NCBI GenBank assembly: GCA_963667785.2
Contig: CAXXMU010000001.1
Coordinates: forward strand, 576,001 to 640,000
Direction of reading: 5' to 3'
DNA from: Alphaproteobacteria bacterium
GTDB taxonomy: Bacteria > Pseudomonadota > Alphaproteobacteria > UBA828
DNA length: 64,000 nucleotides
Made by a program: the position numbers and the translations under genes
Shown: positions 4,576 to 13,156 of the stretch, in pieces
Layout of the letters: each line of letters begins with the position of its first letter
How positions within the stretch are numbered: position 1 is the first letter of the stretch
Notes under the pieces: model-generated
Database searches by the model: none
What the model saw: the letters and a program-made list of their open reading frames with translations, nothing else
What the model was told of the DNA's origin: nothing

Positions 4576-5595
4576 CTAGCGGAAGTGCGGGAGCACGTGG
4601 TCGGCGTAGGCCGCGACGATCTGCTCCTCGCCGCCGTTGGTGAGATAGATGTTGAACTGGGTGACGCCCGCCGCCTCCAGCGCCCGGATCTTCTCGACAT
4701 GGGCCTCGGCCGGGCCGATCACGCAGAAGTCCTCGGTGATCTCAGGCGTGACGTAGGCGCTGTTGTCCGATTCCAGCGCCGTGTGCTGGTGGTAGTCGTA
4801 GCCCTCGTCGGCGCCGACGCCGTCGCGCCGCGCGATGTATGAGGTGAGGCTCGCCGGAACCAGATCGGTGCCGGCGCCGTGGTGCTTGACGATGTCGGCC
4901 ACGTGGTTGCCGACCAGCGCCGGGAACCACTTGGTCTGGGCGATCCCGGTCTCGCGGTCGCCTACCCAGACGGGCGCGCAGGCCATGACTCGGTAGCCCG
5001 CCATGTCGCGGCCCTCGGCGGCGCCCGCGGCGCGCGCCTGGTCCCCCATCCATTGGCAGAGGCCCACATCGGCGAGCTGCACGATGAGCCCGTCGCCGAC
5101 GCGGCCGGCCGCCGCCAGCGCCCTGGGCCCGTAGGCTGCGATCCAGACCGGCATCTCGTAGCCGCCGGTCCAGTCGAACTGCACCGGCTCGGGCGCGCCG
5201 GCGTAGCTCACCGCGTCGCCCCGCACCAGCGCCTTCATGGCCCGGCAGAACTCCTCCAGCCGGGCGACCGTCGCCGGCCGCTTGCCGATCACCCTGACGG
5301 CGCTGTCGCCGCGCCCCACGCCCATGTCGAAGCGGCCTTCGGACTGCACCGCCATCGCCGCGAAGAGGCTCGCCGCCACCGACCAGTCGCGGGTCACCGG
5401 GTTGGTCACGCAGGGGCCGAAGCGCAGCCTGGACGTGTGCTCGATGGCGACCGCCATCTGCGGATAGAGGTCGCGCCACAGCACGTGGCTGTCGAAGAAC
5501 CAGGCATAGTCGAAGCCCGCGGCCTCGGCCTGTCGGCAGATGGCGACGACGCGCTCCTTCTCGAGATCGCCGCGAAAGGTGATGGCGAATTCCAT
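4576..5595 (-). CDS. LLM-class (luciferase-like) oxidoreductase, probably F420-dependent
   Basis: AEAAGFDYAWFFDSHVLW, GPCVTNP, GVGRGDSA, AAYGPRAL..AG.VGDG; directly downstream of npdG; start MEFAIT. Confidence 0.85.
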   Translation of the reverse strand: MEFAITFRGDLEKERVVAICRQAEAAGFDYAWFFDSHVLWRDLYPQMAVAIEHTSRLRFGPCVTNPVTRDWSVAASLFAAMAVQSEGRFDMGVGRGDSAVRVIGKRPATVARLEEFCRAMKALVRGDAVSYAGAPEPVQFDWTGGYEMPVWIAAYGPRALAAAGRVGDGLIVQLADVGLCQWMGDQARAAGAAEGRDMAGYRVMACAPVWVGDRETGIAQTKWFPALVGNHVADIVKHHGAGTDLVPASLTSYIARRDGVGADEGYDYHQHTALESDNSAYVTPEITEDFCVIGPAEAHVEKIRALEAAGVTQFNIYLTNGGEEQIVAAYADHVLPHFR

Positions 5596-5606
5596 GTCAG
5601 CCCCCG

Positions 5607-6275
5607 TCACTCGCTTTCCGGCCAGATTCGCACGCCCGCGTGCTTGAAGCCCGTCGTCTTCGACATGTTGAGGCGGATGAGCAGCGGGGTGATCGCCTCG
5701 ATGCAGCGGGCGCTCTCGGCCGGGCCGCAGTTGTAGGCGCGGGCGCCGATGGTCTCGATCAGCGCCATCACGTCCCGCTTCGCCTCGAGGTCGTCGCCGC
5801 AGACGAGAATGTCGCAGTTGATCGGCTGATCGAGCGCGGCCAGCACATGGGCGGAGACGTTGTGCAGCGCGCCGACCACGGCGCAGCCCTCGCCCAGCAT
5901 CGCCTGCGCCGCCTCGGTCGCCGAGCCCTCGGGCGGCATCGCCGCCTTGCGCGGGTTGCCGGCGGCGAGCGGCACCGCCATGTCGACCAGGATCTTGCCC
6001 TGCAGCGCGCCCGCCAGCCCGGCCAGCGTCGCCTGATGAGCCGACCACGGCACCGCCAGCACCACCAGCCGGTCTGCGCGGGCGACCGCGTCCGCATTGG
6101 CCGCGCCGGCGATGCTCCCCGGCGCACCGGGGACGCCCGCCCTGAGCTCGGCGGCGATGTCGGCCGCCCGGTCGGCGTCGCGCGAGCCCACGACGATATC
6201 GATCCCGGCGAGCGCGCAGCGCTGCGCCAGGCCGCGCCCCTGCGGGCCGGTGCCTCCGATCACGGCGATCGCCAT
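5607..6275 (-). CDS. npdG: NADPH-dependent F420 reductase
   Basis: [52 protein letters not shown]. Confidence 0.9.
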
Positions 6276-6879: not shown

Positions 6880-7287
6880 TCACTCGGCGCCGGTCGCTTC
6901 CTTGAGATAGGCGATCAGGTTCAGGCGGTCTTTTTCCTTCTTGACCCCCCTGAATGCCATCTTGTTCTTCGGGATGTAGCCCTTGGGGTCGGCGATGTAC
7001 GCGAGGATGGTCTCCTCGCTCCACACGATGCCGGCTTCCTTCATCGCCTTCGAGTACTTCTTGAATCCCTCGGCCGTGCCCGAGGTGCGGCCGAAGACGC
7101 CGTACAGGTTGGGGCCCTGCTTGTGCTTTCCGCCTTCCTTGACGGTGTGGCAGACCTTGCACTTCTTGAAGACCTTCTTGCCCTTCCCCGCATCTGCGGC
7201 GATGGCGGACGCGCTCGCCGCCATCATGGCGGAGGCGAGGGCGATGGCGAGAACGTGTCGTGCGCGCACGGGAATCTCCCTGGTCAT
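6880..7287 (-). CDS. Class I cytochrome c (c2/c550-like), exported
   Basis: Signal peptide, CKVCH haem motif, [22 protein letters not shown] distal Met; Lys-rich. Confidence 0.92.
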
Positions 7288-7371
7288 GGCCCCGATCGGC
7301 CAGTGTGGGGGTGCGAGGATAGGCCGGGTTCGCACCCTCGATCAAGGACACCCGGCCTTGTGCAACCGGCC

Positions 7372-8634
7372 CTATTGCGCGCGGTATTCCTCGTCCAGGA
7401 AGAAGCGGCTGTCGTACTCCTCCACGCCGAGGTGACACTCGGCGCAGAACTCGACCCGCGCCGCGCCCTTGCCGCCGGTCGCGCCGATCACCTTGCCGCT
7501 CGGCATGATCAGCGTGTAGCGCCAGTCGCCCGTATCGGGGTCGAATCCCGCCTCCATCTTCTCCATCAGGAAGAGCGGCCCAGCACCCACCCGGCCGCCG
7601 GCGGTGACGGTGAAGCTGTCCTTGGCGAGCACGGTGCCCACAGGCGCGGGACCGGCCTCCTCGAAGAGGGCGTAGTTATCGGCGCCGATATCGTTGGCGT
7701 AGTTGTTGACGTAGCGCGCCCCGTGGGTGTCCGAGACATAGGGCTGGGCGGCGACGTTCCGCCAGCCCAGGTAGGACGCGGCCCACTGATTGCCGGACTT
7801 CGCATAGCCCTCGGCCATGGCCCCGCTGATGCAGGCGTAGGCGTCGCGGGCTTCGTCCGCCGTCAGCTCGACCTCCTCGCCGGCAGCACAGGGGTTGCAC
7901 GGCCCGCAGGGGTTACAGGGAGCGCACGGATTGCAGGCCGCCGCGCACGGGTTGCACGCCGCCGCGCACGGATTGCATGGGTTGCAGGGAGAGCACGGGT
8001 TGCACGCCGCCGCGCATGGATTGCAAGCCGCCGCGCAGGGGTTGCACGGATTGCAGGGAGCGCACGGATTGCAAGCCGCCGCGCATGGATTGCAGGGGTT
8101 GCAGGGAGCGCACGGATTACAGGCCGCCGCACAGGGGTTGCACGGAGCACACGGTCCGCAGGGGCCGCTCGCTGCGGCGAGGCGCGGCACGACGCAATCG
8201 GAACTCGCCGCCGCGCCCGCCGCACAGGGATTGCACGCACCGCACGGCCCGCAGGCGCCGGCACAGGGGTTGCATGGGTTGCACGCCCCGCACGGGTTGC
8301 ACGGCCCACACGGGCCGCAAGCAGCCGCGCACGGGTTGCACGGATTGCAGGGACTGCACGGGCCGCAGGCGCTTGCGCACGGCCTGCACGGATTACAGGG
8401 ATTGCAGGCTGCCGCGCAGGGGTTGCACGGGTTACAGGCCCCACACGGGTTGCACGGCCCGCACGGATTGCAGGAGGCGAGCTGGAGAGCGCCCGCGTCC
8501 TGCTGCGGCGGAGCCACGGCCGGCGCATCGCCGTCGGGCGCGCTGGCCAGGGCGTGGCCGCCGCCGGCGGCGACCGCGAGGCCGATGACCACGGGGACCA
8601 CCGTTCCGGCGAGCAGGGGTTTCGTGCGTGGCAT
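7372..8634 (-). CDS. Secreted CNPC-repeat (Cys-rich) protein with C-terminal cytochrome P460/c'-beta-like haem domain
   Basis: GAGGGAGG RBS before ATG 8634; signal peptide [10 protein letters not shown]...GHALA; two Cys-x-x blocks; C-terminal GTVLAKDSF / LFLMEK / GDWRY / CAECH. The 779-aa ORF in the track is an over-extension. Confidence 0.85.
7888..8472 (-). repeat. Coding tandem repeat of C-[N/G/A/S]-P and C-AAA units (9-12 nt units, degenerate)
   Basis: Two blocks (27 and 29 Cys by manual count) separated by [18 protein letters not shown]; synonymous variation between units. Confidence 0.95.
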
Positions 8635-8662
8635 GTCGGGCCTCCCTCGTTGACCGTATCCG

Positions 8663-8682
8663 TCGCGACGTGTCCGTCGCGA
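8663..8682. promoter_or_regulatory. Perfect palindrome TCGCGACG-N4-CGTCGCGA in divergent promoter region (candidate operator or 5' hairpin)
   Basis: 8-bp inverted repeat containing GCGAC...GTCGC between the divergent starts at 8634 and 8773. Confidence 0.3.
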
Positions 8683-8772
8683 ATTGTCGACGAGTGCATG
8701 GTGCGGAGCAAACCCCTTCGACTCAAATTTTTGTGATTCCCGCGTCGGGCGGGCGGGGGCTACGCTCATCCG

Positions 8773-9636
8773 ATGATCGCTCTCCGTGCCGCTCTTGCCG
8801 CGTGTCTCGTCGTCGCCGGCGCGCTGCTCGCGGGCTCCGCAGAGGCCGCTGGCGCGATCGTGCCGGAGGTGGTCGAGGTTCCGGCCGGCTCCTTCATCGC
8901 GGGCTCCGATGCGGCCGAGCGCGAGTACGCCTACCGGCTCGACGAGGCGGCCTACGGCCACTCCCGGACTCGCGAGCGCGGCTGGTACGACCGCGAGCGC
9001 CCGCGCGGCCCCAAGTCGCTCGACGGCTTCCTCATCACGCGCAACCTGATTACCAACGCCCAGTACCGGGCGTTCGTGGCTGCCACGGGCCATCGCGTCC
9101 CCGATGTCGATCCCGAGACCTGGCGCGGCTATCGGCTCATCCACCCCTATGAGCGCACCCGCCGCCATGCGTGGGCGGACGGCCGGCCGCCGCCGGGGCG
9201 GGAGAATCATCCCGTGGTCATGGTCTCGCACGGCGACGCCATGGCCTATGCGGCCTGGCTCTCGGCCGAGAGCGGGCACGGCTGGCGGCTCGCCACCGAG
9301 CTCGAATGGGAGAAGGCCGCGCGCGGGACCGACGGCCGCTTCTTCCCCTGGGGCGACACCTTCGACCCGGCCCTGCTCAACAGCCACGACAACGGTCCTT
9401 TCGACACGCTGCCCGCCGGCAGCTTTCCCGCAGGCGCGAGCCCTTACGGCCTGCTCGACGCGGCGGGTCAGGTCTTCGAGTGGACGGCGTCGCCGGGCAA
9501 TCCGGGGCGCTTCCTCGTGAAGGGCGGATCGTGGGACGACAGCGGCTGCGGCATCTGCCGTCCTGCGGCGCGGCACGGGCGGCCGGCGGACATCAAGCAC
9601 ATCCTCGTCGGCTTCCGCCTCGTCAGGGAGCCGTAG
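8773..9636 (+). CDS. Exported FGE-sulfatase (SUMF1/EgtB/PvdO) family protein
   Basis: Signal peptide; [84 protein letters not shown]. Confidence 0.92.
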
Positions 9637-9676
9637 AGGACGGAGAGCCGGCACTGGCCCGCTCCCGTCGCCGCGT

Positions 9677-10072
9677 TCACGGCCTGCGCGCCAGGAGATC
9701 GATTTCGACACGGGCGCCGAGGGCGAGCCCGGTGACGCCGACGCAGGTCCGCGCCGGGCGCCGCTCGGGATCGAAGTAGGTCTCGTAGACCGCGTTCATC
9801 GCCGCGTAGTCCTCCTCGAAGTGCGTGAGATAGACCCGCGCGACGATTACGTGCTCGAGCCCGAGGCCGAGAGAGTCGAGCACGACCTTCAGATTGGCCA
9901 TGACGTTCCGGGTCTGGCCCTCGATGCCGGCGGGCAGGGGAGCGGCCTCGTCCTTCGGATCGTTGGGCATTTGACCTGTGACGAACACCCAGCCATCCGC
10001 TTCGACGGCGTGGCTGAAGGGAGCCACCGGCGTCGGTGCGCCGGCCGCCATGTGAAAGATCGGTGCTGTCAT
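9677..10072 (-). CDS. RidA/YjgF-family protein
   Basis: [39 protein letters not shown]...VEID. Confidence 0.92.
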
Positions 10073-10194
10073 CGGCATCCTCCCATCTCGCGCGCGTCCG
10101 AGCGGCGCCGCACCTGCGGCGCCACCGCGCAGACCATGACTCCGGCAAGATAGGCGGGCTAGTCTTCTGCAGGACAGGACGGGGAGGGCTCCTC

Positions 10195-11097
10195 ATGCGC
10201 CTGACGCGCCGGGCGGTGCTGGTCGGAGGGGGCGCTCTGCTCGCGGCGCCGGCGCTCCGAGCCTCGGCCGCAGAGCCGCCCTCGCGGCTCATTCCGGCGA
10301 CCGGAGAGCCGGTGCCCTCGATCGGGATCGGAAGCTGGATCACCTTCAACGTGGGCGACGATCCGCTGCTCCGCGCCGAATGCCGCGCCGTCATGGCTGC
10401 CTTCCTGGAGGCGGGCGGGGGGATCGTCGATTCCTCGCCCATGTACGGCTCCTCGCAGGAGGTCATCGGCGATGCGCTGGAGACGCTGGGCCGCCCGCCC
10501 GGCCTCTTCTCCGCCGACAAGGTCTGGACCGACGCGGCCGACGGCCCGTCCCAGATCGCGGAGACGACCCGCCGCTGGGGGATCGAGCGCTTCGACCTGC
10601 TGCAGGTCCACAACCTGATCGACTGGGAGGCGAACCTCGACACCCTCGCCGCCATGAAGGAGGCGGGCCTGCTCCGCTATACCGGCGTCACCACCTCGCA
10701 CGGCCGCCGGCATGGCGAGCTCGAGGAGGTCATGCGCCGCCGGCCGCCCGATTTCGTCCAGCTCACCTACAACATCGTGGACCGGGAGGCGGAACGCCGG
10801 CTGCTGCCGCTCGCGATGGAGCGCGGGATTGCGGTCATCTGCAACCGGCCGTTTCAGCGCGGCCGCCTGCCGGACAGGCTCGCGGGCCGGCCGCTGCCCG
10901 CCTGGGCCGGCGAGATCGGGGTCTCCACCTGGCCCCAGTTCCTGCTGAAGTTCATCATCTCGCATCCCGCAGTCACGGCTGCCATCCCGGCGACGCGACG
11001 TGTCGACCACGTGCGCGAGAACAAGTCCGCCGCATTCGGCCCCATGCCGGACGCCGCCCTGCGTCGGCGAATGGCGGCGCATGTGCAGGGCCTGTAG
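10195..11097 (+). CDS. Aldo/keto reductase with twin-arginine signal peptide
   Basis: MRLTRRAVL Tat motif; IGIGSW, DSSPMYG, ADKVW, DLLQVHNL, GVTTSHG, QLTYN, AIPAT. Confidence 0.9.
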   Translation: MRLTRRAVLVGGGALLAAPALRASAAEPPSRLIPATGEPVPSIGIGSWITFNVGDDPLLRAECRAVMAAFLEAGGGIVDSSPMYGSSQEVIGDALETLGRPPGLFSADKVWTDAADGPSQIAETTRRWGIERFDLLQVHNLIDWEANLDTLAAMKEAGLLRYTGVTTSHGRRHGELEEVMRRRPPDFVQLTYNIVDREAERRLLPLAMERGIAVICNRPFQRGRLPDRLAGRPLPAWAGEIGVSTWPQFLLKFIISHPAVTAAIPATRRVDHVRENKSAAFGPMPDAALRRRMAAHVQGL

Positions 11098-11160
11098 CGC
11101 CGCCCGGCTCGATACGGAACGCGGCGGGACGCTCGGGCGAGGCAGACGCGCGGCCTAGCC

Positions 11161-11823
11161 GTGTTCTGGGCGCTCAAGGATCTGCTGCCGTTCTCGCCGC
11201 GCGTCTATTGGCGGCTCTTCGCCCTGGAGAACGAGGCGGTCTGGCCGGGGCAGCCGGTGGCGCTGGCGGCCGCTGCGCTGCTCGCCCTCTCCCTGGTGCT
11301 CGGGCGCCGGCCCTCCGGGCGCTGGCTCGGCCCGCTGCTCGGGATCGCCTGGCTCTGGACCGGCTGGCACTTCGTCGCGCTGCGCTACGGCGCGGTCAAC
11401 TGGGTCGCGCCGACGCTGGCCTGGGGGTTCTACGCCGAGGCCGCGCTGCTGGCGGCCCTCGGCCTCTCCGGCCGGCTCGCCTTGCGCCGGCGGGGGCACG
11501 GCGCCTGGCTGGGCACTGGCCTGCTGGCGGCGGCGGTGCTGTGGCCTCTCCTTGCACCGCTCGACGGACGATCCTGGCACGAGGCGGAGGTCGTCGCGCT
11601 CGCGCCGGACCCCACGGCCGTCGCCACGCTCGGCCTGCTGGCGCATGCCGCCCGCAGCCGGTGGACAGCCCTCCTCGGCATCGCCCCGGTGCTGTGGCTC
11701 GCGCTGTCCGCGCTCACGCTCGTCACGATGGGTGCCTGGCAGGGCTGGGTGGTGCTTGTCGCCCTGCTGATCGGCCTCGCCGCATGGGTCGTGCCGGGGC
11801 GCACCGCTGCGGGCGCCCGTTGA
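11161..11823 (+). CDS. Polytopic membrane protein, DUF6064-like
   Basis: LLPFSPRVYWRLF..ENEAVWP N-terminus, several TM segments, APDPTAVATLGLL motif; family name from recall. Confidence 0.65.
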   Translation: MFWALKDLLPFSPRVYWRLFALENEAVWPGQPVALAAAALLALSLVLGRRPSGRWLGPLLGIAWLWTGWHFVALRYGAVNWVAPTLAWGFYAEAALLAALGLSGRLALRRRGHGAWLGTGLLAAAVLWPLLAPLDGRSWHEAEVVALAPDPTAVATLGLLAHAARSRWTALLGIAPVLWLALSALTLVTMGAWQGWVVLVALLIGLAAWVVPGRTAAGAR

Positions 11824-11919
11824 ACCGCCGCGTCGCCGCCGCCCCGACTGGCAAGAGCCGCTCCGCAGCACTATGTTTGGTTCCTGGCAGCGCGCGCGGG
11901 CAACCGGTAGAGCGGCAGG

Positions 11920-12681
11920 ATGGCTAAGGCCCAGGCGACCAAGAGCGGCCGGCAGGAGGAGACCCGCCACCTCGACATGGCGACGCAGCCCGTGAAGAGG
12001 CTGCGCATGATGCTCGCCGCGGGCGAGGACGTGCTCGAGATCCAGCGGGTGCTCGGCCGGACCGGCGACAGCGTGGTGAGCGAGCTCCTGCGCGGCCATG
12101 AGACGTTCTACGAGTGGGATCATTACCCGAAAGGGGACGTCTTCGACGGCGAGAGCCACGCCCAGTACTTCTACCACACCCATCCCGGCGGCCTCAGGGA
12201 CAAGGAGCACGGGCACTTCCACACCTTCATCCGCGCCAAGGGCCTGCCGCGCGGCATGAAGCCCAAGCGTCACAAGAGCCGTGACAAGTGGCCCATGGGC
12301 GATGACGCGGTGACCCACTTGGTCGGCATCTCCATGGATTCCAAGGGCCAGCCGCTCCGGCTCTTCAGCACCAACCGCTGGGTCACCGGCGAGACCTGGT
12401 ACAAGGCCGACGACGTGTGCAAGGTGATCGGCCGCTTCGTCATCGGCCACGCCCGCCCGTCCTGGCCGACCAACCGCTGGATCGGCGCCATGGTGCGGCT
12501 GTTCTGGCCGCAGGTCATGATGCTGCTGAAGGCGCGGGATCAGGTGATCGAGAACTGGGCCGCCCAGAATCCCGCTCTCGACACACTCGAAGACCGCCGC
12601 CTCGAGGTGGCCTCGCAGGCCGAGGTCGACATCGAGGCGCAGCTCGCCGCGGTCAGGGCCGCTCTCGACGCACGGACGTGA
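11920..12681 (+). CDS. His-motif protein, DUF6969-like
   Basis: WDHYP..DV.D, QYFYHTH, EHGHFHTF, HLVGISMD..G.P.RLF.TNRWVTGETW; good high-GC codon usage; family name from recall. Confidence 0.7.
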   Translation: MAKAQATKSGRQEETRHLDMATQPVKRLRMMLAAGEDVLEIQRVLGRTGDSVVSELLRGHETFYEWDHYPKGDVFDGESHAQYFYHTHPGGLRDKEHGHFHTFIRAKGLPRGMKPKRHKSRDKWPMGDDAVTHLVGISMDSKGQPLRLFSTNRWVTGETWYKADDVCKVIGRFVIGHARPSWPTNRWIGAMVRLFWPQVMMLLKARDQVIENWAAQNPALDTLEDRRLEVASQAEVDIEAQLAAVRAALDART

Positions 12682-12791
12682 GGCGGCGCAGCCTCGTCGG
12701 GCCCGGTGCCGTCACGATACCGGGCCCGAAATGAAGAACGCCGCCTCTTGCGAGGCGGCGCCCTCGGATAAGGTCAGAGATACGCGTGAGC

Positions 12792-12995
12792 CTAGCTCGA
12801 TGCGCACGGATTGCAGGCGCATGGATTGCAGGCGCACGGGTTGCAGGCACACGGGTTGCAGGCACCGCAGGGGTCGTCATCGTGCGAATCCGCAACCACG
12901 ATCGGCGTGTCGCCAGCGGATACGGCCGACGGCGCGAGAGCGGCGCCGGCCGCCATGGTGACAACGCTCACGGCAACCACGGTCTCCTTGATCAT
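12792..12995 (-). CDS. Small secreted Cys-rich peptide (67 aa) with (CNPCA)n core; putative RiPP/metallophore precursor
   Basis: Strong AAGGAGGAG RBS; MIKETVVAVSVVTMAAGAALAPSAVSA signal, then [40 protein letters not shown]; 9 Cys. Confidence 0.85.
   Translation of the reverse strand: MIKETVVAVSVVTMAAGAALAPSAVSAGDTPIVVADSHDDDPCGACNPCACNPCACNPCACNPCASS
12804..12863 (-). repeat. 4 x 15-bp coding tandem repeat (ACNPC)
   Basis: Plus strand gcacggattgcaggc / gcatggattgcaggc / gcacgggttgcaggc / acacgggttgcaggc; all differences synonymous. Confidence 0.95.
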
Positions 12996-13156
12996 GATGG
13001 GTTCTCCTCCTTGCAGGCGCATGTTGTGATTTTGGTTTCGCGCCGCCGTTCTGGCTGGCCTGTCTGTGCGAAACCTGGGCCATTGTGGTGTATATCGGCA
13101 ACGGTTGAAAGGAGTTTCGCCGCCACGGTGGCGGCCTAGGCGCACGGGGGCGGCCG

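Follow-up and report, generated by a model that had tools for sequence, protein, structure and literature searches.

Signal-peptide-bearing precursors with repeated cysteine motifs are known from the bufferins and oxazolins, peptides made by the ribosome and modified after translation (RiPPs) that use enzymes of the MNIO (DUF692) family. According to the main text of PMC12452194, MNIO precursors combine a signal peptide with repeats of up to 58 cysteines, and some are fused to cytochrome c and FGE-sulfatase domains. Here we describe a gene group of comparable outline from an alphaproteobacterial genome (GTDB lineage UBA828; assembly GCA_963667785.2), found in a stretch of 64,000 nucleotides (contig CAXXMU010000001.1, positions 576,001 to 640,000; henceforth the window, whose own coordinates are used throughout). 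Its two defining parts, a secreted peptide with repeats of the NPC motif and the cytoplasmic protein DUF6969, match no characterized family. Like the bufferins and oxazolins, as described in the available parts of PMC11626156 and PMC12452194, the group unites signal-peptide Cys-motif precursors, long repeat forms and a neighboring cytoplasmic protein with a metal motif; moreover, one locus of the DUF6969 system contains an ECF sigma/NrsF pair, as do Buf1 clusters, and some DUF6969 partner peptides use KCG/KCA motifs close to the EGKCG of Buf_EGKCG.

The searches made linked DUF6969 to MNIO neither by sequence nor by fold, which sets it apart from the bufferin system. The absence of DUF692 originally noted for the window holds for the whole 98%-complete genome, in which the MNIO profile (PF05114) had no match while its positive control was matched in Caulobacter. 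DUF2063 (PF09836), the partner of MNIO in maturing the Sec-exported bufferins, likewise had no match in the genome, with the reservation that divergent PME-type 2 partners could escape the profile. As the genome lacks both MNIO and DUF2063, the locus is not a bufferin locus. Neither the peptide nor the corresponding arm of a second protein (see below) matches any Pfam or NCBIfam model, including Buf1 (DUF2282) and the bufferin/oxazolin models. The main text of PMC12452194 mentions none of NPC, DUF6969, P460 or YeeE. A literature search for NPCAAK, NPCAA, CNPC or Asn-Pro-Cys repeats, judged by title and start of abstract, returned nothing on this system, though some of the peptides may be among the precursors tabulated in the supplement of PMC12452194, and no paper carrying the name DUF6969 was found. 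The system is genuine and widespread, and the literature searched does not contain it.

The NPC peptide and DUF6969

The conserved core comprises five genes, coding for a class I cytochrome c, a P460-fold haem protein with an NPC-rich arm, an FGE-like CxxC protein, DUF6969 and the NPC peptide, and all five are present in 14 of 14 same-genus loci. The FGE-like, NPC-P460 and DUF6969 genes cluster again in two other alphaproteobacterial families (loci L047 and L050), whose genomes also hold four more P460 copies without any core partner nearby, and the gene group recurs across Proteobacteria. The free peptide (12792..12995, minus strand; 67 aa, 9 Cys) consists of a signal peptide, an IVVA-type spacer and four CNPC motifs; its gene is preceded by the ribosome-binding site AGGAGGAG and has an orthologue in all 14 genus loci, and its exact sequence occurs in public collections. 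The second repeat protein (7372..8634, minus strand; 420 aa, 60 Cys) combines a signal peptide, an NPC/CxPC arm of about 197 aa (57 Cys) and a haem domain of the P460/c'-beta fold ending in a CAECH haem motif. The original prediction of two exported CNPC-repeat proteins is therefore upheld: 27 and 4 copies of CNPC stand behind predicted Sec signal peptides (hydrophobic N-termini with Kyte-Doolittle maxima of 2.44 and 2.81), as against means of 0.08 (maximum 2) for the long protein and 0.007 (maximum 1) for the peptide in 2000 residue shuffles of each. Its proposal that the CNPC protein is a substrate or chelator requires one amendment, in that the long protein cannot be a substrate only, being itself a haem protein (CAECH, P460 fold). 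In this protein 55 of the 59 Cys-Cys gaps span 3 or 4 residues, and its arm has just 2 Arg; across NPC arms the residue following Cys is mostly N, A or G. No selenocysteine codon (TGA) occurs inside the NPC arrays of any locus collected. A third NPC/CxPC peptide gene with a nearly identical signal peptide lies unlinked on another contig of the genome (C2; L001:10178-10381, plus strand), flanked by genes that we take to encode ABC1-kinase-like and ACC-deaminase-like proteins; nearby (L001:15923-19476) are presumably a phosphoenolpyruvate mutase-nucleotidyltransferase fusion and hydantoinase/oxoprolinase genes.

DUF6969 (11920..12681, plus strand; PF22308, E 1e-81) is characterized by a cluster of histidines. 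Across 80 diverse members H86, H99, H101, H133, N152 and P70 are invariant, H88 (79/80), H68 (77/80), E96 (77/80) and H97 (76/80) are near-invariant, and D73 is nearly so. It has no signal peptide, with a hydrophobic N-terminus in just 1 of 120 homologues; hence, for this most constant partner, the notion of exported modifying enzymes did not hold. A structure model (pLDDT 92, pTM 0.90) places the conserved residues on adjacent strands (81-87, 98-105 and 131-139), and from its secondary structure we infer a metal site on one face of the sheet; DUF6969 is thus a predicted metalloenzyme that would act on the Cys repeats. The model had no Foldseek match at E<=0.001 among solved or viral folds, the profile had none among PDB sequences, and an ESM Atlas search recovered DUF6969 clusters only; the best VIA match (Z 6.1, rmsd 2.9 over 58 residues) covers a helical hairpin only. 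This absence of a fold match does not prove a new fold. The family comprises 962 clusters at 50% identity (E<=1e-10) and is present in 9 of 300 sampled Pseudomonadota genomes (about 3%). Its fusions are of SH3/coiled-coil, PAP2 and tandem types only, and none of those examined joins DUF6969 to a peptide. One tandem-duplicated, divergent form (P0296) reaches 497 aa, and in the SH3-fused P0306 and P0350 the His motifs are degenerate.

Six of the nine DUF6969 genomes in the 300-genome sample have an adjacent secreted Cys-repeat gene; in one the locus is split at contig ends, in one the gene lies elsewhere and in one none was found. Samples of two other orders, in which 21 of 301 and 20 of 201 genomes had DUF6969, yielded 51 loci, of which 48 were retained after removal of one truncated locus and two below the cut-off (four of the 48 repeat genomes of the Pseudomonadota sample). 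A secreted Cys-repeat gene lies within 1.5 kb of DUF6969 in 31 of these 48 loci, as against 0 of 297 random windows of the present genome scanned with the same detector. The partner motif differs by lineage, being NPC in some, xPCAA in Sinorhizobium meliloti and Ciceribacter, KCA/KCG on a plasmid of B. glumae and in five sampled loci, and CAA where the peptides are of lipoprotein type. In genome G777 two DUF6969 paralogues each have their own peptide beside them (L329, L344). That the pairing survives at 30-35% identity and through a change of motif is our main argument for a direct functional link between the two. Among the best 80 of 521 metagenomic loci, namely those closest to the DUF6969 of the window, the neighbors are FGE (39), the NPC gene (32), cytochrome c (18), a cupredoxin-like protein (14), P460 (13), rhodanese (11) and YeeE (8); where long flanks are present on both sides, FGE is found in 18 of 30 and NPC in 14 of 30.

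Some of these loci have features of their own. In a sphingomonad-order family (L327-L339) lipoprotein-type peptides with CAA, CCAAEG or CAACGAAC repeats and up to 21 motif cysteines are encoded directly 5' of DUF6969. In S. meliloti 1021 an unannotated open reading frame (ORF) for an xPCAA peptide lies 5' of DUF6969 on pSymA (NC_003037.1, about 1281350-1281720); the rhodanese-YeeE genes found ahead of the L297 copy are missing here. An unannotated exported family of 150 aa (L071:5910-6368 and relatives), cupredoxin/SoxE-like by Atlas features, recurs beside DUF6969.

The repeat itself extends well beyond these loci. The original prediction had regarded the motif as rare, which across bacteria it is not: a pattern scan of species genomes found at least 122 matching stretches; among the matches listed, 83 of 120 loci have an in-frame NPC ORF. 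From 78 listed loci with long flanks we removed 23 without such an ORF, 7 shadow frames or non-secreted products (by eye) and 1 duplicate, leaving 47, which were picked by motif and include related genomes that are not independent. Among the matches listed, the repeat is carried either by a free peptide or by a fusion to a P460, SoxA/TsdA-like monohaem cytochrome, thioredoxin, YHS or YceI domain, and the carriers come from Alpha-, Beta-, Gamma- and delta-proteobacteria, cyanobacteria, Gemmatimonadota and others; the NPC repeat is thus a portable tag behind a signal peptide. DUF6969 is the most frequent neighbor in the 47 listed loci (19), followed by SoxA-like NPC cytochromes (14), FGE-like proteins (9, and 2 more at a distance), DUF302 (8), YeeE (8), multihaem c (5), cupredoxin-like proteins (5), P460 (4) and cytochrome c (4). 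Of the 47 genomes 24 encode it, and these 24 all belong to the 27 titled Pseudomonadota, compared with 9 of 300 in the phylum sample. MNIO is present in 16 of the 47 genomes, with DUF692 inside the fetched locus in 1. The expected co-localization of NPC proteins with DUF6969, FGE-like, P460-like and class I cytochrome genes was accordingly observed in other families and classes, that with DUF6064 was not.

Other NPC carriers were noted in genomes without DUF6969. In twelve loci of one family, f46 (L362-L373), an NPC peptide occurs with an NPC-armed SoxA/TsdA-like cytochrome (11/12) and a weakly ExtKL-like multihaem cytochrome (9/12), often just after arsS-arsM (5/12); Met, His and Lys abound in the repeats, and the peptides resemble a Mariprofundaceae record (L063). 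In cyanobacteria (L109, L130, L074) and an uncultured bacterium (L116), thioredoxins, YHS proteins and free lipopeptides bear NPC tags.

The P460-fold protein, its cytochrome and the FGE-like protein

The haem domain of the armed protein scores 24.2 bits with the P460 profile, against a cut-off of 27 bits, and 27.8 bits when its neighbors are included. Its model (pLDDT 90) matches the P460/c'-beta folds 2je2, 6hiu, 7s5o and 7ead (E 3e-6 to 1e-3, TM 0.42-0.58), with which it shares the fold, the C-terminal CxxCH (118 of 120 homologues) and a Lys at the cross-link position. This residue, K338, aligns to the Lys of the N. europaea and M. capsulatus P460s (2je2, where it is the Lys of TVTVKELV, and 6hiu), which we take to be the cross-linking one, and to a Met of 7s5o. 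From this alignment and from the presence of the Lys in 119 of 120 homologues we predict a cross-linked haem; the cross-link Lys of P460 is named Lys70 in the available part of PMC10411619. E358 (112/120) aligns to a Glu of 2je2, in a weak alignment. The protein differs from the characterized P460/c'-beta proteins in its low identity (17-24%), an extra N-terminal helix, the invariant STHG and ME motifs, and the Cys-repeat arm, at least three NPC being found in 113 of its 120 near homologues; there are also forms without the arm. An arm motif C-x-[VI]-x-[RG]-L is present in 86 homologues, all of which have the helix cysteine C268, and C268 is missing in 14 of the 34 homologues without the motif (counts that ignore phylogeny), which suggests a possible docking disulfide between arm and C268. 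No P460 homologues were found on plasmids. The P460-like protein of one locus (L281:3614-4735) has a long non-Cys N-terminal region, lacks CxxCH and is encoded in tandem with an ordinary arm-less P460 beside DUF6969.

The class I cytochrome c (6880..7269, minus strand; PF00034, E 4e-12), a c2/c550-like protein with a signal peptide and a probable GTG start at 7269, is encoded next to P460 in all 14 genus loci as well as in L050, and is an accessory member of the core. The exported FGE-sulfatase-fold protein (8773..9636, plus strand; PF03781, E 2e-43) forms a distinct subfamily. It resembles FGE/SUMF1, PvdO, ToxD and CalU17 in fold (PDB matches at E 6e-25 to 1e-4) and in a Cys pair in the GGSW loop region, and probably binds copper, to judge from its family membership. 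Unlike aerobic FGE it has a CxxC (C259-G-I-C262) and not a CxxxxC after GGSW, is exported and falls below all NCBIfam cut-offs; CG[VI]C is found in 11 of 12 rows of the subfamily, while a row of the true FGE type (L062) has CxxxxC in the same alignment. The CxPxR motif is the sulfatase tag recognized by FGE, and CNPC, unlike FGE substrates, is without its Arg.

Possible functions of the peptide-DUF6969 pair

The explanation we favor, while giving it somewhat less than an even chance, is that DUF6969 modifies the repeat cysteines before export and that the products buffer reactive sulfur or soft metals in the periplasm. Its His cluster (5-7 His and Glu/Asp) would bind one or two metals and the enzyme would alter Cys side chains one by one, as MNIO does on bufferins, with an unrelated fold. 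In the bufferin/oxazolin class Cys is turned into thiooxazole or oxazolone, and Cu is bound. Sec export would come afterwards, the free peptide and the arm on the haem protein would trap thiophilic species, and the Lys-cross-linked haem, the CxxC FGE-like protein (probably with Cu) and cytochrome c might then oxidize or recycle the load and hand electrons on. A bolder version, to which we would commit more tentatively still, sees DUF6969 as a new-fold metalloenzyme defining a widespread class of MNIO-independent, Sec-exported Cys RiPPs with at least four motif types and haem-protein tags, in which the polythiol arm would capture sulfane sulfur or soft metals for a Lys-cross-linked or His/Cys haem.

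Several observations weigh against modification by DUF6969. A peptide is lacking within 1.5 kb in 17 of the 48 DUF6969 loci (3 of them with an NPC-armed cytochrome) and nearby in 16 of the 30 well-flanked metagenomic loci, as also in Azospirillum and genome G276. Conversely, DUF6969 occurs in none of the 20 listed NPC genomes outside the titled Pseudomonadota, 31 genomes of family f46 have the repeat pattern without it, and the 12 f46 loci share no constant cytoplasmic enzyme. In the window the peptide gene is convergent with DUF6969 and shares no operon with it, and the motif clades on the DUF6969 tree follow taxonomy, so that they do not demonstrate co-evolution. Within the genus the first 25 residues of the peptide are 95% identical and the mature part 76%; as evidence for a leader this is weak, since the signal peptide of cytochrome c is likewise 85% conserved and the spacer motif is found in only 39 of 109 armed P460s. 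Finally, YeeE and rhodanese neighbors suit free thiols better than converted cysteines. The repeats might instead stay free thiols and form a periplasmic persulfide/polysulfide carrier, loaded by exported rhodaneses and oxidized or reduced by His/Cys-type or P460 haems, with YeeE importing sulfur and DUF6969 handling sulfur in the cytoplasm without touching the peptide. We consider this doubtful, though a serious competitor. It accounts for NPC tags in lineages without DUF6969 and for the YeeE/YedE (8), DUF302 (8), SoxA/TsdA-like NPC cytochrome (14) and multihaem c (5) genes at the 47 listed loci; rhizobia and Burkholderiales have tight rhodanese-YeeE-peptide-DUF6969 operons, a YeeE pair with rhodanese being found in 5 of 22 Burkholderiales-order loci and a single-chain YeeE in 6 more; and there are weak matches, below the cut-offs, to ExtKL (69 against 250 bits) and ExtH (66 against 200). 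Among described systems, zero-valent sulfur is imported by YedE1E2 (PMC10812762), MccSep/ExtKL is a periplasmic polysulfide reductase (PMC13510729) and sox clusters of Sulfitobacter contain DUF302 and YeeE (PMC11034169), each according to the available part of the source. Thus relatives of the YeeE/YedE importers and rhodanese (YedE1E2, TsuA, SoxT) and of Geobacter ExtH/ExtKL (MccSep) adjoin the peptide-DUF6969 pair in other lineages; the available parts of PMC10812762 and PMC13510729 describe neither a Cys-repeat peptide nor DUF6969. All these families are absent from the present locus, a 52%-identical YeeE being encoded unlinked on C2, and the SoxZ and SoxA/TsdA domains have no matches in this genome, of which about 2% is missing. 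As the sphingomonad-family loci show only peptide and DUF6969 within 1.5 kb, the pair is more constant than any sulfur gene.

The vicinal CxxC/CxxxC spacing would also suit repeats that, left unmodified, sequester Cu, Hg or As(III) in the periplasm in the manner of a metallothionein, while DUF6969 would be a chaperone or sensor for metal in the cytoplasm. Cupredoxin-like neighbors (5/47 NPC and 14/80 DUF6969 loci, an Atlas lead of high score), the arsM (5/12), arsS (5/12) and MerA-like fusion genes (4/12) of the f46 loci and the arsenosugar glycosyltransferases adjoining the B. glumae copy point in this direction. We regard it as improbable: in many of the repeats a Cys comes only every 5-6 residues (NPCAAK), which is sparse for a thiolate cluster, free thiols become oxidized in the periplasm, no metal regulator recurs among the clustered neighbors beyond single cases, and the haem fusions are left unexplained. 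Less probable again, and in our view quite unlikely, is that the repeats are a disulfide-cross-linked structural tether clustering haem proteins, that the P460 domain detoxifies NH2OH/NO in the classical manner and that the DUF6969 linkage reflects shared stress regulation. The P460 fold with its Lys (119/120) and aligned Glu (112/120), the co-occurrence of C268 with the arm motif (86/86), suggestive of a docking disulfide, and the fusion of the tag to unrelated domains are consistent with it. The identity to characterized P460s is, however, only about 20%, and at the majority of DUF6969 loci the peptide is free and P460 is missing (P460 in 13/80). Further, the alignments cover Lys and, weakly, Glu, and hydroxylamine oxidation by P460 also needs a capping Phe and Arg (Phe41, Arg44), according to the available part of PMC10411619.

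If cysteine modification by DUF6969 is the correct explanation, it would represent a new, non-MNIO class of cysteine-modifying enzymes; if the repeats instead carry sulfur, they would be a new, genetically encoded periplasmic polysulfide carrier tied to P460 and SoxA-like haems. Either of these outcomes would give a role to a P460 clade outside nitrifier-type contexts. DUF6969, a large family with a confident model and no solved fold, gains a specific candidate substrate, and the peptide-DUF6969 pair is present in S. meliloti 1021, Thalassospira tepidiphila and Marinobacter mobilis, which are harmless and can be cultured.

Passenger genes, promoters and flanks

Pfam assigns cytochrome c, FGE-sulfatase, RidA-family, aldo-keto reductase, DUF6064 and DUF6969 domains to products of the window, and profile searches (Pfam/NCBIfam) confirmed the gene families and the flanking apt and cysQ as given before. 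The original prediction further counted the RidA-family gene (9677-10078, minus strand), the Tat-type aldo-keto reductase (10195-11097, plus strand) and DUF6064 (11161-11823, plus strand) as members of the system. We reject all three: none of them is found at any of the 14 same-genus loci, and in the 47 listed NPC loci RidA and DUF6064 both have a count of 0. Three of the 47 (L065, L106, L114) have a homologue of the reductase, 36-39% identical, in the vicinity of an NPC gene; these are too few and too distant to count as membership. In the same-genus loci the FGE-like and DUF6969 genes are direct neighbors, with 327-386 nt between their motifs in the 11 measurable of the 14, as against 2520 nt here. 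Elsewhere in the genus, DUF6064 sits at other genomic positions in 16 of 20 genomes, and of 11 loci examined 9 have the reductase beside it and 3 have RidA. Being absent from the genus loci and found elsewhere in relatives, the 2.2-kb segment (block 9677..11823) is best understood as a translocated block, and its three genes are passengers between FGE and DUF6969. They travel as a module of their own in the genus, and the reductase-DUF6064 pair reaches another family (L353).

Upstream of the P460 gene lies a predicted sigma70-like geometry, TTGCTC-N17-GACAAT (8683..8711, minus strand), which 12 of the 14 genus loci share. Just upstream of its -35 element, in the divergent P460/FGE intergenic region, sits a TCACA-N4-T(T/G)TGA box (8723..8736, minus strand), a candidate regulator site present in 14 of 14. 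A second predicted geometry, TTTCAA-N17-CACAAT (13082..13110, minus strand), lies 5' of the peptide gene, where 9 of 14 genus loci have a conserved box. A strict scan for sigma70 consensus and terminators gave nothing above chance, the P460 promoter included. The two Cys-repeat genes have separate sigma70-like geometries; the locus is a gene cluster and not one operon.

On the apt side of the window (4576-6275), an F420-dependent LLM oxidoreductase (TIGR03842) and the NADPH:F420 reductase npdG, both above cut-off, are encoded in this alphaproteobacterial-type genome, and this gene pair is conserved beside apt in the genus.

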